Source: Patescibacteria group bacterium (GTDB taxonomy: Bacteria; Patescibacteriota; Microgenomatia; UBA8517). From it: a stretch of 64,000 nucleotides of DNA. Every line of letters starts with the position of its first letter. The first letter of the stretch is position 1. Positions 1,861 through 53,220 of the stretch are shown one piece after another. The position numbers were made by a program, and so were the translations under genes. Under the pieces are notes generated by a model. It was not told the origin of the DNA and did no database searches. It was given only the letters and a program-made list of their open reading frames with translations. The stretch spans positions 108,645-172,644 of the forward strand of contig JAHJHG010000001.1 in assembly GCA_018823885.1 (NCBI GenBank). The letters run 5' to 3'.

Positions 1861-2154
1861 TTATTTTTCCTCTTCCTTTCTTACCAAAAGATATCTAATA
1901 ATATTCTCTTCCAGATTTAACTTTTGCGGAAGCATTTTAACTGCTTCTTCCTCCAATTTTAAATGATAATGTAGGAATATGCCAGAGTCGTTTTTTGCAA
2001 TTTCATAGGCTAATTCTTTCTTTCCCCACTCCTCTATCTTGCCAACTTTTCCACCAATAATTTTGACTATTTTTTCAATAGCTTCTTGTGTATTTTTTTT
2101 CTTAGCAGCAGTAGCACTTCCTGGCAAAACTAATGTTAATTCGTAATCTTTCAT
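1861..2154 (-). CDS. rpsF: 30S ribosomal protein S6
   Basis: 97 aa, MKDYELTLVL... consistent with S6. Operon context with ssb and rpsR. Confidence 0.85.
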   Translation of the reverse strand: MKDYELTLVLPGSATAAKKKNTQEAIEKIVKIIGGKVGKIEEWGKKELAYEIAKNDSGIFLHYHLKLEEEAVKMLPQKLNLEENIIRYLLVRKEEEK

Positions 2155-3880: not shown

Positions 3881-4226
3881 GTCTGGATTATATAATTTAG
3901 CAATGACTAAATATAGAGAGTACTACCAAAAAATGGTTGACAATAATAAAGAGGTGTTTGAAAACTTTCAAAGGCTTCATGACAGATATGTCTTAGACGA
4001 AGAAAAGTGGCAAGAAGAGTTCAACAAGGAAGGAGAGAAAATACTTCTTGTTATACAAGAGTATGAAAACAAACTATGTTCCCAATCAGAAAAGGGAGGT
4101 TATTCGCACTTTACTCCAAAATTGGCTGAGAAGTTTCGAGAGGAAGTCAGAAAGCATTTTTCCATGATTGACCACATAGGAATAAGGGTGGATGTTTTTG
4201 CACTAAAAAAAATCAAACTCTCTTAG
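3879..4226 (+). CDS. hypothetical protein
   Basis: 115-aa ORF that fills an otherwise empty gap. No recognisable motif. Confidence 0.35.
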   Translation: MSGLYNLAMTKYREYYQKMVDNNKEVFENFQRLHDRYVLDEEKWQEEFNKEGEKILLVIQEYENKLCSQSEKGGYSHFTPKLAEKFREEVRKHFSMIDHIGIRVDVFALKKIKLS

Positions 4227-4719
4227 GAAAAGCCTTTGATAAACTAGTATTGAATGCCTGAAATTTCTCGTATGCTTCATTTATTTCTGGATTGGTGTCA
4301 CGAAAATTTTGTGTCCAGTCCCTAACTGTTTCTTTCCAGATTCCAAATACTTCATTAAAGCCTTTTTCGCCTATCCAGTCGTGCTCTTGAAGCTTGTTTC
4401 GGGTCAATTCAAGTTGTTTCCTTAGTTCTTCTGGAGTCTCTTTAAATTCTATTTCCAAGGATAACCTTCCCAACATTACAGTTCGCGAGTACTCCATATA
4501 GTGCGGTGAATATCCACTTAATTTAACCATGTTAAAAGCATTTGCATCATCATCAAGGATAAGAGTTATAATATGGCCCAAAAGGATAGTGTCTGTATCT
4601 TCTCCGGTTTTCTTTGTTTCTTTTCTTATAATCTCAGCTTTCTCAATAGGATACTTTATCCAATCCTGTTGTTTTTTGGCCTCGTCTTCGTTCTTTATAC
4701 TTTCAGTTAGTTCTGTCAT
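4213..4719 (-). CDS. hypothetical protein
   Basis: 168-aa ORF in a coding-dense context. No motif recognised. Confidence 0.4.
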   Translation of the reverse strand: MTELTESIKNEDEAKKQQDWIKYPIEKAEIIRKETKKTGEDTDTILLGHIITLILDDDANAFNMVKLSGYSPHYMEYSRTVMLGRLSLEIEFKETPEELRKQLELTRNKLQEHDWIGEKGFNEVFGIWKETVRDWTQNFRDTNPEINEAYEKFQAFNTSLSKAFPKRV

Positions 4720-4724
4720 AATGC

Positions 4725-5375
4725 CTATATATTAGTCAACATGTCGGGCGACAATTCCCCATAATCATAAATCACCTTTTTCGCTTTTTGAAGCAATTTG
4801 GCGTGCTTACTGTCTCTTGCAATCGCCACAACCTTCATCCCTGCATTTTGGGCCGCCTTTATACCCGCCACTGTATCTTCAATTACCAAACAATTTTCTG
4901 GGTCAATTCCTAATTTTTGTGCTGTTAAAAGAAATATTTCCGAATCCGGTTTTTTAAGCTTAACCTCTTCACCAGTTGTGATTGTTTCAAATATTCCCTC
5001 CAAATTGAAAGCATCAAAAACTTTCTCAACCGTTGGCCAAGTATTCGATGTTGCAAGAGCTACAAAAACTCCTGAATCTTTGAGATCTTTTACAAAATCT
5101 TTTACACCATTTTTAAAAGTAACTTTCGATAGCATTTTCAGATATGCCTCTTGGGTTTCTTTGGAAAGCTCTTCTGTGCTTTTTTTTGTTTTTATTTTAT
5201 GCTTAGGAATTAATCTTTGCCAATTTTCTTCCACACCTATTCCCTGTGTATGTGGAAATTCTGAATTAGTTTCTACTCCGAGCTTAGATAAGACTTCTTT
5301 AAAGGCAATTCCATATTCGTCTTCGTTATCCAATACTGTTCCGTCTAAATCAAATATCACCGCCAACAACTTCAT
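4725..5375 (-). CDS. HAD-superfamily hydrolase (beta-phosphoglucomutase-like subfamily IA)
   Basis: Motif I VIFDLDGTVLDNE at the N-terminus. Overall HAD-IA architecture. Confidence 0.75.
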   Translation of the reverse strand: MKLLAVIFDLDGTVLDNEDEYGIAFKEVLSKLGVETNSEFPHTQGIGVEENWQRLIPKHKIKTKKSTEELSKETQEAYLKMLSKVTFKNGVKDFVKDLKDSGVFVALATSNTWPTVEKVFDAFNLEGIFETITTGEEVKLKKPDSEIFLLTAQKLGIDPENCLVIEDTVAGIKAAQNAGMKVVAIARDSKHAKLLQKAKKVIYDYGELSPDMLTNI

Positions 5376-6796
5376 TTTTGTATTTTATTTACTTTGGGGC
5401 CTTCAGGAGTGTCTTCGACTAAATATCCCTCCTCTAGCATCGATTTTCTTATCTTGTCTGCATCCTCAAACTTTTCAGCTTTTCTTAAAGCCTCTCTTTC
5501 TTCCGCCAGTTTTTGAACCTCTATTGGTATTTCAACTTTCTGTGTCTGAAATCCTTGTAAGCCCAATCCCAATACTTCGTCGAAAGACATCGCCAAATCA
5601 TACTTATCTCCTGAGGGAATATTACTCTTTAACATCTCCCAAAAAGCAGCCAATGCTCTGGGAGTATTTATGTCATCGCAAACTGCCAGAGTGAACCTGT
5701 TTCTGAAATCATCAATTTTCTTTTGTTTCTCTGGAGAGAGAGTTGTTCTGGAAGACTTTTCTCGGTAACCAACCACTTGACTTCTAAGCTTATCAAAAGC
5801 AGTTTGCGCCGCCTTCAAGCTCTCCCATGTAAAGTTCAGTGAATCTCTGTAGTGAGCCGTTAAATAGAGATAGCGCAGAGCTAATGGATCAAAACCTTTT
5901 TTTTGTAAATCCGAAATTGTATAAAAGTTATTTAAGCTTTTGCTCATCCTTTTTCCGTCCACCTTGAGAAAAGTGACATGAATCCAGTAACGAACGAATG
6001 GCTTGTCCGTTGCCGCTTCGGACTGAGCAATTTCATTCGGATGATGAGTCGACCTAAGGTCTTCTCCGCCTATATGAATATCGAAACTTTCTCCTAAATA
6101 TTTCATGCTCATAGCAGAACACTCGATATGCCAACCTGGAAAACCGATTCCCCAGGGACTCTCCCATTCCATATGTCTTTCTCCCGGTTTTTTAGAAAAC
6201 TTCCATAAAGCAAAATCCCTTGCGTTTTTCTTTTCAGGGTTTTCCCTTACTCTTGCCCCTTCTAATACCTCATCCAACGTTGACAATTCCCCATACTTTC
6301 TGCCTGTCTTTTCTTCAAATTCCTTTGTATCAAAATATATTCCGTCCGATGTTTTATATGTAAAACCCTTTTCTTCAAGAACTTTAATAAGATCGATTTG
6401 TTCTTCTATGTGATCGGTGGCTTTTGGAAATATCCACGGTTTTCGCAAATTAAGCGCTTCGAAATCTTTCAAAAATATTTTTGTGTAATATTCTGCAATA
6501 TCCCATGCGGTTTTCCCTTTTTTCTTTGCTGACTCTTCAACTTTGTCATCACCAGTGTCTGCATCCCCGACAAGATGACCTACGTCTGTTAAATTCATAA
6601 CATATTTTGTATAAAAACTGTTGTACCCAAGTAGTCGAAAAAGAATATCGGCAACTGTATATGTGCGAAAATTACCGATCGTTGCAAAATTATGAACGGT
6701 AGGGCCACAAGCATACATCCCCACCTCTTTTGAATTATGGAGTTCAAATTTTTCTTTTTTCCCAGTAAGACTATTTGTTAGATAAATGTCGGCCAT
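5372..6796 (-). CDS. cysS: cysteinyl-tRNA synthetase
   Basis: Class I signatures: CGPTVHNFATIGN (HIGH region) and KMSKSLNN. Length 474 aa. Confidence 0.9.
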   Translation of the reverse strand: MADIYLTNSLTGKKEKFELHNSKEVGMYACGPTVHNFATIGNFRTYTVADILFRLLGYNSFYTKYVMNLTDVGHLVGDADTGDDKVEESAKKKGKTAWDIAEYYTKIFLKDFEALNLRKPWIFPKATDHIEEQIDLIKVLEEKGFTYKTSDGIYFDTKEFEEKTGRKYGELSTLDEVLEGARVRENPEKKNARDFALWKFSKKPGERHMEWESPWGIGFPGWHIECSAMSMKYLGESFDIHIGGEDLRSTHHPNEIAQSEAATDKPFVRYWIHVTFLKVDGKRMSKSLNNFYTISDLQKKGFDPLALRYLYLTAHYRDSLNFTWESLKAAQTAFDKLRSQVVGYREKSSRTTLSPEKQKKIDDFRNRFTLAVCDDINTPRALAAFWEMLKSNIPSGDKYDLAMSFDEVLGLGLQGFQTQKVEIPIEVQKLAEEREALRKAEKFEDADKIRKSMLEEGYLVEDTPEGPKVNKIQK

Positions 6797-41434: not shown

Positions 41435-42163
41435 GTGACGGAAAATACAACAAATGCTGAGGATAATTCTAAAATTATAAAACCTGTTGTTAAAGAGGTC
41501 TTAACAGGAGTCGATAGAGCTATGGATTCTATAAAGAAGGCGCAAAACGCAGGCTCTTGGCCAAAAAAGGAAATACCTCAGTCTCCAACAGTAACTAGCG
41601 ACGCCGTTGAGGAGATATACCCAACTGAGAAAGAGTATCCAAATCCAGAAGCGCGGGGAAAAATACTTAATTCTATACGCAATCAAGAACCAACAATTCC
41701 TCCTAAAATAAAAAAAGAGTTAACAGAAGAGGCCCACAAACTCGATACCGTAACGATGGGGACAGAAGGAGAAGAAGCTCAAAAAACAACAAAGTTGCCA
41801 AAAACACAACCATTTATAGAGGGAACAATCACTCCTCTTCCTACCCAAGCCCCAGAAACCATCAAAGCTCAAGGTGGCGCCGAACCACTAAAAAGAATCT
41901 TAAAAGCGCAAGAAAAAGTAGACAGTGAAAATGCGGCCTTGCAAGAAGATGCCGAGGCAAAAATGAAAGCAAGAATATTGAAAAAACAAGTAGAGGTTCC
42001 TTCTGAAGCAAAAAATTTTGTACCACCCTCACAGATTCCGTTCGAAAAACCAATTCCCCAGCCAACAATTGAGCCCACTCCTCAAGAAGCAACACAACCA
42101 TTGAAATCAGAGCGAAAACCTTTTCTCTCAAGAACATTTCGTAAAATTTTTGGCAAAGAATAG
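41435..42163 (+). CDS. low-complexity Pro/Lys/Glu-rich hypothetical protein inserted between rplA and rplJ
   Basis: 242-aa ORF. Compositionally biased and likely disordered. Confidence 0.35.
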   Translation: MTENTTNAEDNSKIIKPVVKEVLTGVDRAMDSIKKAQNAGSWPKKEIPQSPTVTSDAVEEIYPTEKEYPNPEARGKILNSIRNQEPTIPPKIKKELTEEAHKLDTVTMGTEGEEAQKTTKLPKTQPFIEGTITPLPTQAPETIKAQGGAEPLKRILKAQEKVDSENAALQEDAEAKMKARILKKQVEVPSEAKNFVPPSQIPFEKPIPQPTIEPTPQEATQPLKSERKPFLSRTFRKIFGKE

Positions 42164-42827: not shown

Positions 42828-43253
42828 ATGGCAAATGATAAAAAAGAAACAAAAAAAGATCTTCCAAAAGCAGTTGAAAAATTAGTTGATGAGGTTTCAA
42901 AACTTACCGTTGTGGAATTAAGTCAATTAGTCGACGCCTTACAAGATAAGCTTGGTGTTTCAGCTATGCCAGTCGCAGCCGCTCCAGCAGGAGGTGCTAC
43001 AACAGAAGCAGAGGGTGCAACAGAAGACACCGCAGCCGGAGCCAACCAAACAGTGATTATCACTGGAGCTGGAGAAAACAAAATCGCCGTTATTAAGGCG
43101 ATTAGAGAAATAGATCAGAACTTGGGACTTAAGGAAGCAAAAGATATGACCGAAAATCTTCCCGCTGAAGTATTGAAAGATGCAAAGGCAGAGGATGCTA
43201 CCGCAGCTGCAGATAAACTTAAGGCAGCAGGAGCTACGGTTGAACTTAAATAA
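42828..43253 (+). CDS. rplL: 50S ribosomal protein L7/L12
   Basis: AAGGAGG SD 8 nt upstream of the ATG at 42828 (the track start at 42780 is upstream and in-frame). Ala-rich hinge, C-terminal ...KIAVIKAIREI...GLKEAKD..E..P..LKD.AKAEDA... domain. Confidence 0.9.
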   Translation: MANDKKETKKDLPKAVEKLVDEVSKLTVVELSQLVDALQDKLGVSAMPVAAAPAGGATTEAEGATEDTAAGANQTVIITGAGENKIAVIKAIREIDQNLGLKEAKDMTENLPAEVLKDAKAEDATAAADKLKAAGATVELK

Positions 43254-43282
43254 AGCTCTAATATCTTCCCAGCAAAGTAATT

Positions 43283-43321
43283 GGCGCGCAAGTTATCCTT
43301 TCGGAAGGTCGTTCTGCGCGC
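43283..43321. terminator. GC-rich hairpin (GGCGCGCA...TGCGCGCC) between the convergent rplL and a small membrane ORF
   Basis: 8-bp GC stem enclosing an inner CCTT-TCGG-AAGG hairpin. A U tract is absent, so it would be a bidirectional or weak terminator. Confidence 0.35.
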
Positions 43322-43346
43322 CATGTTGTTTCAAGTAATACGCTGA

Positions 43347-43625
43347 TCAAGGTACTGAACAGTAAAGCCCATATCCAAATGCTGTCAGCGCTAGGATTAT
43401 AAAAATGATACCTAGCCAGTAAAACCAACGACCTTTGTCATCCCACTTCGAACCTAGAGCTATAATAATCATGTAGAAACCTAATCCGACTAGGCTCAGG
43501 ATAAGGGTTTTTAACCACATTTCCAACACGATCGCCCAACCAGCAGCAATAAGTAATATCGTGGGCACAATACTCAGAAGATAAAGCCTTTTCTTCATCT
43601 TCTTTTCGTAAGTTTCCATATCCAT
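43347..43625 (-). CDS. small membrane protein (three TM helices)
   Basis: 92-aa hydrophobic ORF. Confidence 0.35.
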   Translation of the reverse strand: MDMETYEKKMKKRLYLLSIVPTILLIAAGWAIVLEMWLKTLILSLVGLGFYMIIIALGSKWDDKGRWFYWLGIIFIILALTAFGYGLYCSVP

Positions 43626-43708: not shown

Positions 43709-45760
43709 CTATGGGAGGTTCTCAAGTTCTTTTATTGCCTCATCTAAACTCATACCATCATCTAAAGATTTTTTAAGTTTTGGCCAGATTTTGTGTGCAA
43801 CAACCATTTCAGGCTCACGCACCTTGCTCAAATCGAACATTCCAAGTCGTTTCAAGTCTTGCACGGAACACAAGTCAATTCCTGCAATATATAGCAATTT
43901 TGAAAGACCAGATTTTCTTGCTTCCTCCGACATTAAAACTTCCGCAACTAATTCCTGCTCTATATAATTCAACTGGCTTGATGTGGGTAAAAAGCCACTC
44001 CTATCATTAAGCGCTGTATGCTTCCTAAAGATTCTTAGGGTCGAAGAGTATGCTTTTTGAAAAGTTTTGCCAAACAATTCCTCATTTACTAACAGTTCTT
44101 CCAATGTCATATTATGCTCTCTCCTCGCCCTTGCCTCCAAAGAAACTCTGAGACACTCCTTAAAACTACCTCCCCTGCTCTTTTCCCTTAGTATTGCGTA
44201 GTAGTATGGTTTGGCCTTGTTCTTAAACCCAACAATCGCATCCCTTGTATCATCCTCTACTTTCATCGATAGTGCTTCGGCAAGTATTGAACTTCTTCCT
44301 GTAGCTAACTCATCTAAGAGACCCAAATCACTGCCTAACCCCACCTCTTGATTTGCGTATCTCAACACATGCCCTTCAACCTCATGAGCTAAAACAGTGA
44401 CGGCATCAATCAAACCCCTATTAAAGCTTCTTGGAATTCTTACCTCTCTGACCTTTTTGTCTTTCTCTTTAAATATCACTATTAAAGTCCCCTTTCTATC
44501 CAAAACCACAGCGCTCCATTTTTTATCACCTTCGGTTAAGCCATATCGAGCCAAAATTACATCACATAATATTTTTGCTTGTTCTGCATTAACCTTGTGT
44601 CTGTTATATTCTTTATATTCTTCCGTTTTTTCCTGAAATGGCTCAGAAATTCTTGTCTTCGCATATTTGGCTAGATTATCTGGAATTGTCTCAAAAAATC
44701 CATTTTCTCCAATTTTCAGTCCAGTTCCTTTCAAGAAGTGGTCTATTCTTTCTAATGTCCTAGATGCTTTCTCGTACGCAAATCTATCTCCTTTTATCTC
44801 ACCTTTCACTCCCCTTAATATACTTAAGGCTTTCTCCTCTTTTCTACCTCTTTTTGATTGGGCAGCTAAAATTCTGCCATTGGCATACTGACCAGCGATA
44901 AGAACGTTTACATATCGTTGATAAAGCTCAAGAACAATCTGCTCGGCTTCGGCGAAACTGCCAGGCTCGGCCCTCAACTGTTGTCGTACTCTCTTTAGAT
45001 CGGATTTCAAACCACGATATCCTTGGAGTTTTTCAATCAAATTATCGATCTTGACTATCTGCGTTATTCTTTGAGGATTTTCAATTTTTGAAACATCACC
45101 ACCTGCTTTGATAACCTCATCTTTGAATTTATCTTTTTCCCAGTCAGAAGAATATCGGTTCATTCTCTCTCTTACTCTTTTGGGTGTTTTCTTTAAATCT
45201 GTCTCAAAAAATACCTTTTCAATAAACTCAGCATCAAAGGTTCCTTCATTCTCCTCGTCTGATGTCCTAGGAATATTTCCTTTAAAATTAAGTGGCGTTT
45301 CTGAAAAAAGGGCTTTTTGGAGCTTAGGAAATACGCTACCCTCCTTGCAATACTCTGCAAAACTACCCTCGTTTGAAACAACCTCCAATAAATCATCAAA
45401 AAAAGCTTCATATACTGATCGTTTCTTTTTTAAGTCTTTTAAATCAATATTGTTTTCTTTTGCTAGTCGTTTAATTCTCTGTTTTAAATCCTTATCGAAA
45501 TAGACTGCAGAAAAAAGCCGAGAGCCGGCATCAGTCGTAAAGGCTTCGGGATATATAACGTGATCCTCAACCGATGTTTCTTTCAACTTTTTTATTTCTG
45601 TAAAAAAGGGTTTCTCAAACATACGTAATTGACCTCTTTCTTTCTCAGTTAGTTGGAGCGGGGAAATTTCTTCTAAAAAATCTGGATGTCTAACTAATTC
45701 CGAAGGCCTTTGGGGATAAGGATAAACGGAAGGACCTCTTTTTTCTTTAGTCTCCAGCAT
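43709..45760 (-). CDS. large hypothetical protein, first gene of the ATP-grasp neighbourhood. Possibly related to the QEGLA-motif (DUF1704-like) partner proteins.
   Basis: 683 aa. Contains ...VLAHEVEGHVLRYANQEVGLGS..., which resembles the QEGLA-family region. Assignment is tentative, from memory of family descriptions. Confidence 0.4.
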   Translation of the reverse strand: MLETKEKRGPSVYPYPQRPSELVRHPDFLEEISPLQLTEKERGQLRMFEKPFFTEIKKLKETSVEDHVIYPEAFTTDAGSRLFSAVYFDKDLKQRIKRLAKENNIDLKDLKKKRSVYEAFFDDLLEVVSNEGSFAEYCKEGSVFPKLQKALFSETPLNFKGNIPRTSDEENEGTFDAEFIEKVFFETDLKKTPKRVRERMNRYSSDWEKDKFKDEVIKAGGDVSKIENPQRITQIVKIDNLIEKLQGYRGLKSDLKRVRQQLRAEPGSFAEAEQIVLELYQRYVNVLIAGQYANGRILAAQSKRGRKEEKALSILRGVKGEIKGDRFAYEKASRTLERIDHFLKGTGLKIGENGFFETIPDNLAKYAKTRISEPFQEKTEEYKEYNRHKVNAEQAKILCDVILARYGLTEGDKKWSAVVLDRKGTLIVIFKEKDKKVREVRIPRSFNRGLIDAVTVLAHEVEGHVLRYANQEVGLGSDLGLLDELATGRSSILAEALSMKVEDDTRDAIVGFKNKAKPYYYAILREKSRGGSFKECLRVSLEARARREHNMTLEELLVNEELFGKTFQKAYSSTLRIFRKHTALNDRSGFLPTSSQLNYIEQELVAEVLMSEEARKSGLSKLLYIAGIDLCSVQDLKRLGMFDLSKVREPEMVVAHKIWPKLKKSLDDGMSLDEAIKELENLP

Positions 45761-45771
45761 GTTTCATTTTT

Positions 45772-46677
45772 CTAAAGAGTGGACAAAAACTTAATAATTT
45801 CTCTTTCTACATTAAGTCCGGTGTCTTTTCTAACCGCTTCCCATCGAGGGGCAGAGTTCACTTCCAAAACAAAAAGTTCACCTGTTTTGTCAACCCTCAG
45901 CACGTCAACTCCTCCGATATCAATTTGCAAAGCCGATGCCGCTTTTATGGCCAGTTTTGCCTCATCTTCGGGAACTGGATTAAGTTGCTCACGTTTCCCC
46001 TCAGGAAATTCGCCATCTATTTTATCGATAAATCGCCTTCTCCAGCGGGTTGGGCGAGTAATTCCAGCTAACACCTTTCCCCCAACCACAAATATCCGAC
46101 TTCTTTGGGAAGATTCCGTAAATTCTTGAGCAATAAAATTCATTTTTTTCTTTTTTTGAAATTCCTGTAATTTCTCGTACAATTCATCTAATTCATTTTC
46201 ATTTCTCGGTGACCAAACCGCATGACCTTGCTTGCCAGTCGTTCCTTTTATTACGAAAGGGTATCCAAATATTTTTGGTGCCTTTTCTTTAATGTTGGCC
46301 AACTTACCAAAATAGGTTTTCGGTACTGGTATACCAGCTTCAATAAAGAGTTTCACTTCTACCGATTTGGGAATGGGGATGCGAATTAAATCTTCTCTTT
46401 CAAATACTCTGTCAACAACTCTCACTCCATGTTGTTTGCAGTGATTAACTAAAAGAGACACTTCTTCAAATCTCTTGCCAACAAGTCTTATATAAACAAC
46501 ACTAAAAGAAGCAATATCTTCACCCTTCACTTTTAAGATTGCTCTTCCCCCATCCGTTAAATATTCAAGATCAGAAAATGAAGCTGTTAGAAGTGGAACA
46601 TTAAGCTCTTTCGCTTCCTTAACAAATGGCTCTATGTGGCGAGTACCCCCGCCAACTATGACTAATATTTTGCTCAT
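45772..46677 (-). CDS. RimK-family ATP-grasp ligase (alpha-L-glutamate ligase-like)
   Basis: 301 aa, the same length class as RimK. ATP-grasp motifs (...FVIKGTTGKQGHAV..., ...GVDVLRVDKTGELFVLEVNSAP...). Confidence 0.7.
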   Translation of the reverse strand: MSKILVIVGGGTRHIEPFVKEAKELNVPLLTASFSDLEYLTDGGRAILKVKGEDIASFSVVYIRLVGKRFEEVSLLVNHCKQHGVRVVDRVFEREDLIRIPIPKSVEVKLFIEAGIPVPKTYFGKLANIKEKAPKIFGYPFVIKGTTGKQGHAVWSPRNENELDELYEKLQEFQKKKKMNFIAQEFTESSQRSRIFVVGGKVLAGITRPTRWRRRFIDKIDGEFPEGKREQLNPVPEDEAKLAIKAASALQIDIGGVDVLRVDKTGELFVLEVNSAPRWEAVRKDTGLNVEREIIKFLSTL

Positions 46678-47972
46678 TCTTCTTCCTTTACGGGATTCAC
46701 CAGAAACCCAGCCAGATCTCGCCTACCGACAATAAGTGGCCTCTTAAGCTTGCTTCTATCTGCTACACCAGCTGAGGTTTTAATTTTTTTACCCTTTAAC
46801 CAAAAAGTGACATTAATAATTGGTCTTCTCTGTTGACCAATAGAACTCCAAACTGTTTTTTGCCAAAGAATGTTGCTCTCTTCAAGCAATCCCATATCCT
46901 GAGCCAATGTTTTGTCTATCGAGCTTCGCCATGCACCAGTATCAATCTTTGACGGAACAGTCAGTCTTTTGCCATCTTTGCCTTTTATTTTTACTTCCTC
47001 AAAAATGTTAAGTGTTCTTATCCCTTCCTCAGCTCTTACTCTATCCGCAAAGGGTCCGGCAAAAAGAGATTTGGCGATAAGAACACCATGGTCGGCATCT
47101 TTTACTTTTAGATCTTCTACTCTTTCCAATCTCTTCCGCAAACCTGCTTGATTAGCAATTTGGATTTGCAAACCGGGTAGAAAATTAATCTCCAAAATCA
47201 TTGGTCCTTTTTCCGGATGAAGGACAATATCGACCCCCAAGTACCCCAACTCCGCTGTCTCTTGGCACATAACGGCCATCTTTAATATCTTTGTCCAATT
47301 GGGTATTTTTATTCCATGAAGCTTGCGTTTTGTCCCAGGTTTATAGGGAATATAATCCCCTTTCCACAAAGCTTTTGTTGTGATCCCTGTGGTGATGTCG
47401 ATACCAACAGCGATTGCTCCTTGATGCAAATTTGCTCTTCCACCCGATTCCTTAGTGGGAAGTCTTAACATGGCCATAACTGGAACTTTATTAAAAACAA
47501 TAATACGAACATCAGGAGTCCCTCTAAAAGCATACTTCTTAAAAGATTTATGCCGACCTACGTATTCTTCAAAAAATGCCATATCCGGCACATTTTGCAT
47601 ACTATACGCTCCTTCTAAAATATCAAATATATGAAGTTTTAAATCCTCAATGGTGACTTTCGTTCTACTTGTTGTGATCCAACCATCTCCATCTTTAGAT
47701 TTTTTCTTGACAACTATTATTCCCTCTCCACCTAAACCTTTGTTAGGCTTTAATGCAAACGAAGGCGGTAGACTATCCCAATCAAAATCGATAAGGTCTC
47801 GGGGATCTTTAAATCTGGCATAAGTATCGGGGACAGGAATATCTACCTTTCTTAACATCCTTTTTGTCCGAAGTTTTGAGTTGGCAATCTTTTTACCATG
47901 CACCGGGTTGTATGGGTACGAAAATAGTTGACTTCTGGCGTTAAGCCCTAAAATTGATGAAGTTTTAACCAT
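46674..47972 (-). CDS. ATP-grasp enzyme (alpha-L-glutamate ligase-related subfamily) fused to a C-terminal retropepsin-like (DTGA, RimB/Zn_protease-like) domain
   Basis: N-terminal KPNKGLGGEGIIVV and SGGRANLHQGA motifs. C-terminal ...KIDTGAWRSSID... and ...IVGRRDLAGFLVNP... are typical of the clan-AA aspartic-protease-like domain that accompanies RimK systems. Confidence 0.6.
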   Translation of the reverse strand: MVKTSSILGLNARSQLFSYPYNPVHGKKIANSKLRTKRMLRKVDIPVPDTYARFKDPRDLIDFDWDSLPPSFALKPNKGLGGEGIIVVKKKSKDGDGWITTSRTKVTIEDLKLHIFDILEGAYSMQNVPDMAFFEEYVGRHKSFKKYAFRGTPDVRIIVFNKVPVMAMLRLPTKESGGRANLHQGAIAVGIDITTGITTKALWKGDYIPYKPGTKRKLHGIKIPNWTKILKMAVMCQETAELGYLGVDIVLHPEKGPMILEINFLPGLQIQIANQAGLRKRLERVEDLKVKDADHGVLIAKSLFAGPFADRVRAEEGIRTLNIFEEVKIKGKDGKRLTVPSKIDTGAWRSSIDKTLAQDMGLLEESNILWQKTVWSSIGQQRRPIINVTFWLKGKKIKTSAGVADRSKLKRPLIVGRRDLAGFLVNPVKEEE

Positions 47973-47978
47973 AGCTTG

Positions 47979-48875
47979 TTAGTCACTGATAAGTCTCCTG
48001 AAACGCCAAAGTTCTATAAATCTTAGGCCAACATACTTACCTACCAGGTAATCTATAGCGATAACTATTAATAACAATATTTCCGGATTAAGTAAGGCGA
48101 ATTCTTGCATTGGTTTTAGAGTTAAAAGAACATAGGAGGCGAGAGATAATATTAACGTTTCTGTAGCTAAATTAATGGCTGTCTTTGCGCTTTTACCTGC
48201 CTGGACTCTACTAAAGTCTTCTGCCAAAAGAACCAAAACAAGAACCGGGAAAATGGAGACATTAGTTAAATCAGGGTGCTGAATAATTGGGGTTGTAAAA
48301 AGCACGCCCAATACCCCGATGGCAACAAACCAAAGTAATAGTGCCATTTTAGGAAGATATTGGAGCTTAATCTTAAGTTTTCTCAAAGCCATTCTCGCTG
48401 CAGTGGAGATTGCCACAATCACTAAGAACAGAACTATTCCTACAATCGGCCCCGTAGCCACAAACACAATTGACAAAGCAGCTGGAAGAAAAATTCCAAA
48501 ACCTCGAATTCCAAGTAAATGCCTCGCCGATGCTATGGCTGCAGCCACCATGGGAAGCAATAATAATAAAACAATCGTATTCGGCGGCACTCCAGCCCCT
48601 ACGGCTCCCCTTATGGCATATTTTATTGGATTTGTTGGCCAAACAGGACCAAGCTCTTGCTCCTCTAAAAGCTTCTCAAGAGGACCAATGGTTTCTTCGG
48701 TAGGTTGGGTCAAATCGGGCCTAGGAGACGGACTAGGTTCAGCCTCAAGCCCTGCTGAAGGACTTGCTGTACCGATGGGAGAAAGGCCTTGAGCAAATAT
48801 ATTGGTCACCACGGCAAAGCTTAAAGCTGCCGCGGCCATAAAACTGATAAGAATACTTGCCTTGCGCATTGTCAT
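47979..48875 (-). CDS. polytopic membrane protein, possibly the 7TM partner of ATP-grasp/transglutaminase-type systems
   Basis: 298 aa. N-terminal signal plus Pro-rich spacer, then about 6–7 hydrophobic helices judged by eye. No soluble domain. Confidence 0.45.
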   Translation of the reverse strand: MTMRKASILISFMAAAALSFAVVTNIFAQGLSPIGTASPSAGLEAEPSPSPRPDLTQPTEETIGPLEKLLEEQELGPVWPTNPIKYAIRGAVGAGVPPNTIVLLLLLPMVAAAIASARHLLGIRGFGIFLPAALSIVFVATGPIVGIVLFLVIVAISTAARMALRKLKIKLQYLPKMALLLWFVAIGVLGVLFTTPIIQHPDLTNVSIFPVLVLVLLAEDFSRVQAGKSAKTAINLATETLILSLASYVLLTLKPMQEFALLNPEILLLIVIAIDYLVGKYVGLRFIELWRFRRLISD

Positions 48876-50565: not shown

Positions 50566-51525
50566 ATGATAGGCAAAAACTACTTGGCGACAAAAAAGGA
50601 TTTGGAGGCGATAAACGAAGCTTTGCGCTTTGTGTGGCATCCAAAAATGAAGTTTGTCTTCCAAGAAAAATCAAAAATTGCTAATACGGCTGTAATCTCC
50701 TACGACAGCAAGTTTATATATATATGGACACAAAAAGAATTAAAGGGAATTGACAAAATGCAAAGTGGCCACCCCAAGTATTTGTTTTACAAAATACCTC
50801 ATGCCCTAGAACTCAAAGAGAGGTGGCAATATACATGGCATGCAGACTTGTGGAAAAACATGGAAAAATTCCTTCCTGATCAGATAAAAAGAGAGAATTT
50901 GTTTGATATACCAAGGATTGGTGGAGGATTACTCACACCCTTTGTTGAACTTCAGAAGAAGAGAGGGTTCAAATATAATCCATATGTTACTGGCGAATCG
51001 TATCTCGCCACCATCATACATGAGTTCGGACACAACTACTGGAACCAACACAAACTCTGGTGGTACTCAAACAAAGAAAAAAACATTGAGTATCTAACAG
51101 CTGCAAAAAACCTGTATCAAAAAGGGGGGGGAAATCCTAACATACCTTTGCATATACCAACAAAAAGCGAGGTCGGTGAACTATTCGCGTTTTGCACAGA
51201 ATACTATGCAAGCTCCATCTTTTGGCCAACCCATAGGCAAGCCCTTGACATTTTTGGTAAATATCGATTAAAGGAATTAATAAGGGAGGAAAAAGGGAAA
51301 AATCTAGATAAGCAAGATTCTGTCCTTGAGCCGTCAAAGAACTTACATGACTTTTCCCTTGTTTTCGGCAAAATCATATTCGAGTGCCACCCTAAAAAGT
51401 GGCCTAGTTTTCTAACAAGTCCTCCTTACTTAGGAAGTCATTATGGCCTTGGCGGTCCTGGAGGCGGTGATGGACGACTGGGATTACACGGCTGGGGAGG
51501 TTCCCCAGAAGGCAGGCATGACTGA
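50566..51525 (+). CDS. hypothetical HExxH zinc-metallopeptidase-like protein with a Gly-rich C-terminal tail
   Basis: IIHEFGHNYW motif. Extended -10 (TGGTATACT) 7 nt before the ATG suggests a leaderless start. The last 85 bp overlap a convergent small ORF. Confidence 0.5.
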   Translation: MIGKNYLATKKDLEAINEALRFVWHPKMKFVFQEKSKIANTAVISYDSKFIYIWTQKELKGIDKMQSGHPKYLFYKIPHALELKERWQYTWHADLWKNMEKFLPDQIKRENLFDIPRIGGGLLTPFVELQKKRGFKYNPYVTGESYLATIIHEFGHNYWNQHKLWWYSNKEKNIEYLTAAKNLYQKGGGNPNIPLHIPTKSEVGELFAFCTEYYASSIFWPTHRQALDIFGKYRLKELIREEKGKNLDKQDSVLEPSKNLHDFSLVFGKIIFECHPKKWPSFLTSPPYLGSHYGLGGPGGGDGRLGLHGWGGSPEGRHD

Positions 51526-51674: not shown

Positions 51675-53108
51675 TTAATATTCTATTGGATGTGCGACTT
51701 CAACTCCTTGAGTTGCCACTACTTTTTTTATAAACGGCTCTAAGGTTTCATCATAATAAGGCTTTCCCTCTCCGTTTAATCTCCAGGCCCCCTTTGCCCA
51801 CTCACCTCTATATGGATTGTATGTACATCTGGGATAAGGAGCAGAAAAATATTCACCCTGATTCTGATTAGCTCCTTCCGCAAGGGGTCGACAATCAAAA
51901 CAAGCATATCTATACTCACAGTCCTGACAAACCAATACATTATCTTTTGTATTTCTCCAAACAGTTTCGAGTTTTTGCCCTAAAACTATTTCTCTAAGAG
52001 CCACTTCCAAAGCATTACCGACTATTAAGTCTCTCGAAAAAATACATGGCAATACATTTCCATTATCAGTAATAGTTATTTTGCCTTGTAGACATGAATG
52101 TCCAGAAGTATTTCTAGAGAAAATATCTTTTGAGATTGTAAAATTTGGTGACATCATAAGGCTATATTTCACGATAGATTTCTTAGTTGGCATTATCGAT
52201 GGATTGTCTCCTCTTCCTTTTGGTCTCAAAACGTCTGGTTGCTTATGGGAAAACCCCATTTCTTCTACAAGTTCCTGAGTTTGCTTGATTGTCTGTTCAT
52301 TTGGACTCATTAATACCGTCTCAACTCTTACGGGCACACCAACTTCTTTTAGAAATTTTAAAGCTTCTATTGTTTTTCTGAAACTACCTGGGGTTTTTGT
52401 AATTGAATCATGTAGTTTTTCATCATTTGAATAAAGCGAAGTGGCAACATTTATACCAAGTGCTTTAATTCTTTGAATTTTTTTTGGCGTAAGCATTGTT
52501 GCATTCGTAAAAATTTCAATATATTCATATCCAACATTTTTAGAATATTCTGCAAGATCAAAAACTGTTTCTCCATTTTCTCCCTTATATAGAAGTGGCT
52601 CGCCACCAATAAACTGACATCTTCTACATCCCAAATAGTAAGATTCATCAATAAACTCTTTCCATTTCTCAAAGGAAACCCCCTTATTGTTTTCGAAACT
52701 CTGTTTGGAATGCAAGTTTCTTTCTTTTGAGATACCCATTGCTTTTTGGTACGTGGGTGGCATACATTCCGCATAGCAGTGAATACAACTTTCGTTGCAA
52801 TCATTTGAAACAATCTCGAACCACACAAATTGAAGAGAGGGGCTTCGCATAAGTTCTTGCAACATACTTCTTCGATTGCTTTTTTCCTGGGTTACTAAAT
52901 CCATGGTTTCAAGCTTTTTCCAAAACCCTAAATTTTTAGTTACACCAATCAAAATGTCGCAAGCCGAGTGGTTTATTGAATAAATTCTGGAGGAATTTAC
53001 ATCATAAATTGCTCCTCTTAGTACTCCAGGGACAAAGAAAACACCATCTTTAAATATATGCTCACCTGAGGATAAATGTTCTTTAATATCCAGGCCACGT
53101 TCTTTCAT
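51675..53108 (-). CDS. radical SAM enzyme with a C-terminal SPASM domain (peptide-maturase type)
   Basis: CNESCIHC (CxxxCxxC) cluster. The C-terminal Cys-rich region (...C.DCEYRYACFDC...C) is SPASM-like. The track start at 53186 is a TTG inside repeat B. The start was reassigned to the ATG at 53108, which is preceded by a perfect TTGACA-17-TATATT promoter at 53119-53147 on the minus strand. Confidence 0.8.
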   Translation of the reverse strand: MKERGLDIKEHLSSGEHIFKDGVFFVPGVLRGAIYDVNSSRIYSINHSACDILIGVTKNLGFWKKLETMDLVTQEKSNRRSMLQELMRSPSLQFVWFEIVSNDCNESCIHCYAECMPPTYQKAMGISKERNLHSKQSFENNKGVSFEKWKEFIDESYYLGCRRCQFIGGEPLLYKGENGETVFDLAEYSKNVGYEYIEIFTNATMLTPKKIQRIKALGINVATSLYSNDEKLHDSITKTPGSFRKTIEALKFLKEVGVPVRVETVLMSPNEQTIKQTQELVEEMGFSHKQPDVLRPKGRGDNPSIMPTKKSIVKYSLMMSPNFTISKDIFSRNTSGHSCLQGKITITDNGNVLPCIFSRDLIVGNALEVALREIVLGQKLETVWRNTKDNVLVCQDCEYRYACFDCRPLAEGANQNQGEYFSAPYPRCTYNPYRGEWAKGAWRLNGEGKPYYDETLEPFIKKVVATQGVEVAHPIEY

Positions 53109-53162
53109 GTTTGCACAGAATATAGGATAAAAACATAAAATTGTCAAATAATGAACACGCGC

Positions 53163-53220
53163 TTCTACGGAGCCACTTCTTTCCAATTTAGCCTCTTGAA
53201 GGTAAGATCTCTGGAGGAAG
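53163..53220 (+). repeat. copy B of the ~55-nt direct repeat
   Basis: CTACGGAGCCACTTCTTTCCAATTTAGCCTCTTGAAGGTAAGATCTCTGGAGGAAG. Lies between the rSAM promoter and the NUDIX gene stop. Confidence 0.7.

Follow-up and report, generated by a model that had tools for sequence, protein, structure and literature searches.

A Patescibacteria variant of the Rlo amidoligase-retropepsin system, with a fused ligase-protease and a predicted MATCAP-like carboxypeptidase

The window analysed here, a 64,000-nucleotide stretch of contig JAHJHG010000001.1 from a Patescibacteria group bacterium, contains at positions 43709-48875 a block of four co-directional minus-strand genes that encode a polytopic membrane protein, an ATP-grasp ligase fused to a retropepsin-like protease, a RimK-like ATP-grasp ligase, and a 683-residue putative metallocarboxypeptidase. 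The block is a system of known kind, an Rlo/Rim-type amidoligase-retropepsin neighbourhood. The variant is distinguished by the covalent fusion, by loss of a transglutaminase domain, by a swappable slot for a second ligase, and by a peptidase from an unclassified MATCAP-like family. It is near-universal in a branch of the Patescibacteria, where its conservation is at the level of ribosomal proteins. We read the block as the Microgenomates/Woesebacteria-type form of Rlo, in which a membrane-associated cycle would build and then trim an acidic, poly-Glu-like peptide, and we put the probability of this reading at roughly one half.

The reference system is the rloABC trio of Pseudomonas aeruginosa, which was named and studied genetically and structurally in 2025 (Lormand et al., PMC11957051). 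RloA is a secreted retropepsin that cuts runs of at least 8 Glu by means of K46, R114, and R137, RloB is a seven-transmembrane (7TM) protein with a periplasmic inactive transglutaminase domain, and RloC is a cytoplasmic ATP-grasp protein (PMC11957051). Deletion of rloB or rloC suppresses the defects of a triple rloA mutant (PMC11957051), which implies that the RloC ligase and the RloB membrane protein make something that needs trimming. A first-pass annotation of the window, made from the sequence alone, had described the function of such neighbourhoods as not established experimentally. That is outdated as regards the genetics and structures of the trio, but it holds for the biochemical product, which the Pseudomonas work left open (PMC11957051). 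The matches to RloB reported there lie 96% in Proteobacteria (PMC11957051).

Protein families of the four genes

All four open reading frames (ORFs) of the first-pass annotation occur as it described them, and Pfam and NCBIfam matches bear out all of its domain calls (RimK family, TIGR02291-like ATP-grasp, fused RimB-class retropepsin, and 7TM_transglut). In transcriptional order they are the RloB-like 7TM gene (47979-48875, 298 aa), the fused ATP-grasp/retropepsin gene (46674-47972, 432 aa), the RimK/LysX-family ATP-grasp gene (45772-46677, 301 aa), and the gene for the putative MATCAP/M32-like metallocarboxypeptidase (43709-45760, 683 aa). The successive junctions are a 6-nt gap, a 4-nt overlap of the start of the RimK-like gene with the stop of the fused gene, and an 11-nt gap, packing of the kind expected for a single transcription unit. 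Consensus scans of the operon for promoters and terminators did no better than on shuffled sequence.

The fused protein carries an RloC-like ATP-grasp ligase domain at residues 1-290 (nt 47103-47972), matched over residues 3-287 by both PF14397 (E 3.8e-66, 223.6 bits, cutoff 31.4) and TIGR02291 (E 7.8e-76, 255.1 bits). The second score lies below the hypothetical-equivalog cutoff of 314.2, so the protein is assigned to the same family and is not called an equivalog. Both ligase motifs quoted in the first-pass annotation, the P-loop-like KPNKGLGGEGI and GGRANLHQGA, are present. The latter includes R179-A-N-L-H-Q-G-A (nt 47415-47438), and the Mg-binding E261-I-N263 follows at nt 47184-47192. In an alignment of 26 homologues the residues of the ligase motifs are invariant. 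The same alignment reveals a conserved linker between the two domains (residues 291-317, nt 47022-47102), in which D292, H295, G296, K301, F304, F308, V312, E316, and G317 do not vary.

Residues 318-432 (nt 46677-47021) make up the RloA/RimB-type retropepsin domain. For the single protein the PF05618 match is weak (E 1.3e-5, 25.6 bits against a cutoff of 27, residues 367-427), and the RloA3 match has E 1.5e-4. A profile of the C-terminal domain finds as its best PDB matches 9G59 (E 1.6e-6) and 9G58 (E 2e-4), which are crystal structures of RloA, and 2PMA (E 5.6e-3), an RloA-like protein of Legionella. These alignments include both the putative catalytic DTGA (residues 344-347, nt 46932-46943), likewise quoted in the first-pass annotation, and the I-V-G-R motif (residues 414-417, nt 46722-46733). 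Among the 26 homologues D344, T345, G346, G416, and R417 are invariant, within K-I-D-T-G-A and I-I-G-R motifs, and many homologues carry a precomputed PF05618 match. Judged by these comparisons the retropepsin domain is real. The two folds anticipated for the 432-aa protein are thus both supported, the ATP-grasp by PF14397 and the retropepsin by the RloA structures.

Two further invariant residues bear on what the protease might cut. K342, two residues before the catalytic Asp, is equivalent to RloA K46, a poly-Glu contact, and R406 lies within a D-R-S motif that aligns with RloA-like chains, as the equivalent of a poly-Glu-contacting Arg. RimB, the cytoplasmic homologue of RloA, cuts runs of at least 5-6 Glu and stimulates synthesis of poly-alpha-glutamate by RimK (PMC11957791). 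By analogy with the specificity of RimB and RloA, and given K342 and R406, the domain would be specific for poly-Glu. A search of the window and of 2668 ORFs from related loci found no encoded run of five or more Glu, so a poly-Glu substrate would have to be made enzymatically. The 432-aa protein has no signal peptide, and the retropepsin is fused to an ATP-dependent cytoplasmic enzyme; it must therefore act in the cytoplasm.

Homologues of the fused protein number in the thousands; the top 120 are 426-463 aa long and 65-93% identical to it, and those that are named come from Woesebacteria or Patescibacteria. Fusion of ligase to protease is therefore the standard form in this lineage. It amounts to a Rosetta-stone link between RloC and RloA, independent evidence that the two act on the same molecule. 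We also considered whether the fused protein, whose tail reads ...KEEE, might glutamylate itself, and rejected the idea because D or E is the last residue in only 18 of the 69 distinct tails among its homologues.

The 298-aa protein matches PF14402, 7TM_transglut (E 2.7e-23, 83.2 bits, cutoff 25). It matches the NCBIfam RloB profile only at profile positions 313-507 of 508, the C-terminal 7TM part, scoring 66.9 bits where the cutoff is 900. It lacks RloB's periplasmic inactive transglutaminase domain and has a 74-residue segment in that place. Hydropathy and an AlphaFold2 (AF2) model agree on an N-terminal transmembrane (TM) helix (residues 6-24, nt 48804-48860), an acidic, Pro/Ser-rich extracytoplasmic segment (residues 25-98, nt 48582-48803), and a polytopic block of about seven helices (residues 99-298, nt 47982-48581), in keeping with the polytopic protein first described. 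The acidic segment contains an invariant WPxNPxK motif (W79-P80-x-N82-P83-x-K85). R118, H119, R161, E219, K228, E239, E265, R285, and E288 are invariant polar residues of the protein. Its best 120 homologues have PF14402 only, nearly all are 285-317 aa long, and the named ones are from Microgenomates or Woesebacteria.

The 301-aa protein belongs to the RimK family (PF08443, E 1.9e-23, 83.5 bits, cutoff 21), and in PDB it is matched best by Pseudomonas RimK (7QYR, E 5.5e-12) and E. coli RimK (E 1.2e-11). It falls short of the RimK subfamily model TIGR00768 (106.7 bits against 143.4) and far short of the S6-ligase equivalog PRK10446 (51.6 bits against 331). The canonical F-R-S-N-L-H-R-G-G loop is replaced by RWRRRFIDKIDGEFPEGK, and the whole derived substrate loop, TRPTRWRRRFIDKIDGEFPEGKR, spans residues 207-229 (nt 45991-46059). 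The replacement is conserved within a subtype with the consensus T-R-P-T-R-W-R-R-R-F-I-x-K-x-x-G-E-F-P-E-G, which keeps the Gly-rich ATP loop and the Mg-binding E-V-N (nt 45856-45864 in the window). The RimK-like and fused ATP-grasp proteins are only remotely related to each other. Weak matches also link the operon to the ATP-grasp domains of glutathione synthetase, cyanophycin synthetase, and N-acetylglutaminylglutamine amide (NAGGN) synthetase.

The 683-aa protein has no match in Pfam, in NCBIfam, or in PDB, the last searched by single sequence and by profile. Its AF2 model is confident (predicted local distance difference test score, pLDDT, 84; predicted template modelling score, pTM, 0.82). 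DUF1704 (now PF08014), a family against which the first-pass annotation had proposed to check this protein, gave no sequence match, whereas the best structural match is MATCAP itself, and the two have the same fold. The N-terminal half (about 400 aa) is helical, and there is no signal peptide. The predicted catalytic domain (about residues 410-683, nt 43712-44533) is modelled as a small beta-sheet (416-449), a long helix with the zinc-site motif H459-E-V-E-G-H464 (nt 44369-44386), and then a helix with E495 (nt 44276-44278). Across 90 family members of about 23% identity G345, E460, H464, E495, and Y599 (nt 43964-43966) are invariant, and H459 is nearly so. MATCAP and TMCP enzymes use HExxxH and a downstream Glu, and TMCP2 is inactivated by E329A or E364A (PMC10499314); the 35-residue spacing of E460 and E495 is exactly that of E329 and E364. 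Within the family PF08014 is the most recurrent weak Pfam match (4 of 76 members, best E 0.0012). We treat the protein as MATCAP-like in modelled fold and active site, outside PF08014 by threshold, and predict from its sequence and model that it is a gluzincin metallocarboxypeptidase (MATCAP/M32-like) of an unclassified family. For this family one search found only 23 clusters at 90% identity among 5.8 billion. Exhaustive searching of 1.84 billion proteins with a profile yielded 424 representatives, mostly about 600-620 aa long and without Pfam annotation.

Conservation and surroundings of the block

We collected 82 loci through the fused protein by an alignment-based metagenome scan (a scan of genome contigs with the single protein gave two loci only) and annotated them with the window's own proteins; denominators count loci with enough flanking sequence. 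The 7TM gene lies directly upstream of the fused gene in 67 of 67 loci, and a RimK-like gene directly downstream in 61 of 66, with two RimK-like copies in 24 of 50. The window type of RimK-like protein is single-copy, and loci with two copies keep the canonical loop in both. A convergent rplL-rplJ-rplA-rplK cluster is found within 7 kb in all 28 loci that could be scored. By contrast, of 44 loci only 2 have the 683-aa gene in the gap between the RimK-like gene and rplL, and two more cases are truncated. The first-pass annotation had staked its reading on co-conservation of all four genes; three of them are co-conserved, and the 683-aa gene is not. Because of this rarity, and because several of its homologues stand alone, we do not count it as a core part. 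Elsewhere the same gap holds an S-adenosylmethionine-dependent (SAM) methyltransferase (15 loci), a third ATP-grasp protein of YheCD/RimK type (11 loci), uncharacterised proteins, or small membrane proteins.

For 19 loci that also carry the ribosomal genes, median identities to the window's proteins could be compared. The fused ligase-protease (66%) and the 7TM protein (64%) stand among L11 (71%), L7/L12 (64%), L10 (62%), and L1 (57%), while the RimK slot reaches only 27%. These values describe a two-protein core under constraint like that of ribosomal proteins, together with a variable tailoring module. Patescibacteria have genomes of about 1 Mb with little biosynthetic capacity, yet this branch keeps an ATP-consuming operon of 3-5 genes; the retention of two slow-evolving core proteins in such genomes points to an important, unstudied function. 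The host lineage is known from metagenomes only. Two records that carry the operon at 91% and 72% identity (L010 and L011) are titled 'uncultured Gammaproteobacteria bacterium'; the titles look mislabelled, because homologues elsewhere are named Woesebacteria, Microgenomates, or Patescibacteria.

The 683-aa gene occurs in 4 of 17 loci with a derived-loop RimK against 0 of 39 others (Fisher p = 0.0065, in a sample found via the fused gene). The full four-gene block recurs at 79% (L001), 50% (L009), and 42% (L004) identity. In a different lineage, without ribosomal neighbours, a relative of about 23% identity (P0095, locus L092) belongs to an operon of 7TM, fused ATP-grasp/retropepsin, ATP-grasp, RimK, and peptidase genes. 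In a sample of neighbourhoods from the wider family, two more distant relatives adjoin a RimK-like or ATP-grasp_3 gene and one relative does not. We also considered whether the peptidase pairs exclusively with the derived-loop RimK and rejected the idea: the pairing holds locally and fails in the divergent L092, L098, and L004, whose partner retains the canonical loop. At L020 the RimK-rplL gap holds, at 4197-5468 on the minus strand and on the strand opposite to the operon, a 424-aa ORF without a Pfam match whose HEINHE sequence includes HExxH; from this motif it may be another metallopeptidase in the slot of the 683-aa gene.

Downstream of the 683-aa gene by 83 nt, and co-directional with it, is a gene for a small membrane protein (43347-43625, minus strand, 92 aa, about three TM helices) that may be the last of the unit. 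The protein has a weak DUF7649 match and is conserved only in close relatives (L001, L002, L013, L014, and L018); analogous small TM ORFs occur in L010, L015, and L016. Next comes the 3' end of the rplK-rplA-rplJ-rplL cluster, which is on the plus strand. In the interval that separates the convergent 92-aa gene from rplL, at 43283-43322, lies an inverted repeat, GGCGCGCA...TGCGCGCC, whose inner stem is CCTT/AAGG; it is plausible as a shared bidirectional terminator and was missed by the consensus terminator scan. The tail-to-tail order (43253-43347 in the window) is kept even though the 0-4 kb between the two clusters differ in gene content by lineage; it is absent in L092. In the window rpoB is not the next gene after rplL. 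Between rplA and rplJ is a Pro/Glu/Lys-rich ORF of 242 aa (41435-42163, plus strand) without a Pfam match, with a 244-aa counterpart at the same position in L001. L11 (40119-40550, plus strand) ends in ...GIEVEEK and S6 (1861-2154, minus strand, at 97 aa a short S6) in ...VRKEEEK; both are acidic tails capped by Lys, of a type that a MATCAP-like carboxypeptidase could uncap.

On the other side of the block, a 319-aa protein (50566-51525, plus strand) with an HExxH motif (IIHEFGHNYW), a Gly-rich C-terminal tail, and no Pfam match adjoins a radical SAM/SPASM protein of 503 aa (51675-53186, minus strand). The two may be a peptide-modification pair, and they recur in L049 about 5 kb upstream of the 7TM gene. 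A flanking M16 peptidase and the radical SAM/SPASM gene were considered as parts of the system and excluded, because in related loci their adjacency is inconsistent. No meaningful match came from anti-phage defence models (PADLOC). Over positions 1-40000 of the window, long runs of minus-strand genes have a GC skew that is strongly negative, at about -0.2, and an AT skew that is also negative; both skews swing towards zero or positive values where plus-strand genes take over (about 26-34 kb and 40-43 kb).

A build-and-trim cycle and its alternatives

The conserved core is the 7TM protein and a cytoplasmic ligase that carries its own retropepsin, followed by a variable tailoring slot, which in the window holds the derived-loop RimK-family ligase and the predicted MATCAP/M32-like zinc carboxypeptidase. 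In the cycle that we propose, both ligases would work at the cytoplasmic side of the membrane and consume ATP to make an acidic, most probably Glu-rich chain with alpha-peptide linkages, either free or attached to an acceptor at the latter's C-terminus. Two fused subunits would pair to give the active retropepsin dimer, which would cut long Glu runs endoproteolytically. The 683-aa enzyme, where present, would remove C-terminal residues singly, and both enzymes together would determine how long the product is and which group ends it. The 7TM partner may anchor the machinery or hand the product to the cell envelope.

The homology of the parts, the intact catalytic motifs, the gene linkage, the ribosomal-level conservation, the cytoplasmic protease, and the carboxypeptidase fold with its zinc-site motif are observed features of the block. 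What we infer from them is the poly-Glu-like chemistry of the product, its acceptor, how the two ligases share the work, what the 7TM protein does, and the connection with the envelope. The earlier suggestion of ligation plus processing at the membrane fits this evidence, with the amendment that the protease must be cytoplasmic, unlike the secreted RloA.

Several points weigh against such a cycle. Pfam describes PF14397 as a 'sugar-transfer associated' ATP-grasp, so the acceptor could be a glycan and not a peptide. The Pseudomonas protease is periplasmic; the site of trimming therefore differs between the systems, and the chemistry might too. The 301-aa protein lacks the canonical R-x-N...G-G loop and so may use a substrate other than glutamate, or be something other than a conventional ligase. 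The AF2 model of the 7TM protein is weak (pLDDT 62) and a fold search with it found no informative structural relative, which leaves an exporting or anchoring role a guess. The 683-aa gene, finally, is as rare as described above, and one sub-clade of its family stands alone in unrelated contexts.

The nearest alternative overlaps the build-and-trim cycle and differs from it mainly in acceptor: the ligases would attach amino acids to a glycan, a teichoic-like polymer, or a peptidoglycan precursor handled by the 7TM protein, and the protease and peptidase would mature or recycle the decorated polymer. The Pfam name of PF14397 suits this, stand-alone 683-aa homologues are found among glycosyltransferase, Wzy, PMT_2, and flippase genes, and in L092 the operon adjoins a class A penicillin-binding protein. 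The rlo mutants of Pseudomonas show cell-shape, hypo-osmotic, and beta-lactam phenotypes (PMC11957051). A Shewanella mutant in a 7TM/inactive-transglutaminase gene, for its part, overproduces membrane vesicles. The conserved core, however, includes no glycosyltransferase or lipid-carrier genes, and the closest relatives of the fused protease are specific for peptide poly-Glu. We regard envelope-polymer decoration as unlikely.

A second alternative concerns the 683-aa gene alone, which might be a functionally separate, lineage-specific insertion at a variable spot between the ligase operon and rplL. Its presence in 2 of 44 loci, the many unrelated genes found in the same gap, and the stand-alone sub-clade are what such an insertion would leave. 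On the other side are its position on the same strand, 11 nt past the RimK-like gene, the biased co-occurrence with derived-loop RimK genes, the recurrence of the full block at 42-79% identity, and the relatives that occupy the same position in another lineage or adjoin ATP-grasp genes. Moreover, its nearest structural relative is a natural antagonist of an ATP-grasp ligase: MATCAP and TMCP enzymes trim Tyr and Glu off acidic tubulin tails (PMC10499314). Functional separateness seems to us improbable on this balance.

The first-pass annotation drew an analogy with glutamylation of ribosomal protein S6, and a RimK/RimB-like cycle on ribosomal tails, in which the RimK-like ligase extends the C-terminus of S6 or another protein and the retropepsin and carboxypeptidase remove residues, has some attractions. 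The ligase is of the RimK family, the protease is RimB-class and cytoplasmic, and the operon is convergent to rplK-rplA-rplJ-rplL in every locus with enough flank. Removal of Lys by a MATCAP-like enzyme could expose a terminal Glu on S6 (...KEEEK) or L11 (...VEEK). The specific analogy fails, however: S6 is not Glu-terminated and, ending in Lys, is an unlikely acceptor, the RSNLHRGG loop is absent, and the S6-ligase equivalog score is far below its cutoff. The Rim system has no counterpart of the integral membrane partner present in 67 of 67 loci. The ribosomal genes are convergent and not co-transcribed with the operon, the adjacency is missing in L092 and so may be mere lineage synteny, and the carboxypeptidase needed to expose Glu is absent from about 95% of loci. 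A ribosomal-tail cycle is thus a quite unlikely account. Least likely of all is that stand-alone ATP-grasp ligases make a small soluble metabolite of peptide nature, for example a di- or tripeptide of osmolyte type or a short modified peptide, with methylation in some lineages, for although there are up to three ATP-grasp ligases and a SAM methyltransferase in the variable slot, weak matches to glutathione, cyanophycin, and NAGGN synthetases, and an osmotic phenotype of Rlo, a dimeric endoprotease for long substrates and the 683-aa carboxypeptidase are ill-suited to so short a product, and the invariant membrane partner would go unexplained.

Returning to the build-and-trim cycle, we add a tentative extension that we consider doubtful as a whole: the 7TM and fused proteins may form a near-essential machine of this Patescibacteria branch, one that makes a length-controlled acidic peptide or an envelope or surface peptide tag, with the swappable genes diversifying the product and the 683-aa family being the first bacterial MATCAP-type 'eraser' set against ATP-grasp 'writers'. 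If true, the block would be a prokaryotic counterpart of the tubulin tyrosination/glutamylation cycle, and its product would be needed by ultrasmall, host-dependent cells.

Comparison with known systems

Peptide-tagging and peptide-synthesis systems that combine ATP-grasp enzymes, 7TM/inactive transglutaminase proteins, PF05618 proteases, and DUF1704-type peptidases were reportedly predicted by Iyer, Abhiman, Burroughs, and Aravind in 2009. That prediction paper aside, we found no description of the Patescibacteria variant in the literature searched.

The closest known system is rloABC, with which the window shares PF14402 7TM (RloB), TIGR02291/PF14397 ATP-grasp (RloC), and PF05618 retropepsin (RloA) components linked in one operon, as well as the catalytic DTG and basic residues equivalent to the poly-Glu contacts of RloA. 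It differs in that the protease, without a signal peptide, is joined to the C-terminus of a cytoplasmic ligase, in contrast to the separate, secreted RloA; in that the 7TM protein has the 74-residue segment and no transglutaminase domain; and in that a second, RimK-family ligase and a carboxypeptidase are added, in a patescibacterial host. The variant shows that the transglutaminase domain and the periplasmic location of the protease are both dispensable, and its fusion bears on what RloB and RloC make that must be trimmed.

With the RimK-RimB(-RimA)/RpsF system (PMC11957791) the window shares a RimK-family ATP-grasp accompanied by a cytoplasmic retropepsin, and an association of ligase with protease, by binding of RimB to RimK in the one case and covalently in the other. 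Here, however, the protease is fused to an RloC-type and not a RimK-type ligase, the RSNLHRGG loop is missing from the RimK-like protein, which also scores below the cutoff of the S6-ligase model, S6 ends in Lys, and the membrane partner is obligatory.

The 683-aa protein resembles MATCAP/TMCP1-2 (KIAA0895L/KIAA0895; PF08014, formerly DUF1704), known from the tubulin TTL/TTLL cycle (PMC10499314), in its HExxxH and downstream Glu at the 35-residue spacing. It is bacterial, twice the size, with a helical N-terminal region of about 400 aa, and without a significant PF08014 match. Among other gluzincin carboxypeptidases, the M32 (Taq-type) and DUF885 families give no match at the sequence level, and M32 uses HExxH where the 683-aa family has HExxxH. 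The family, with its approximately 424 representatives, is thus a set of unclassified, MATCAP-like HExxxH predicted carboxypeptidases with genomic ties to ATP-grasp ligases, and it may serve as a bacterial model, amenable to experiment, for how writers and erasers control C-terminal peptide tails.

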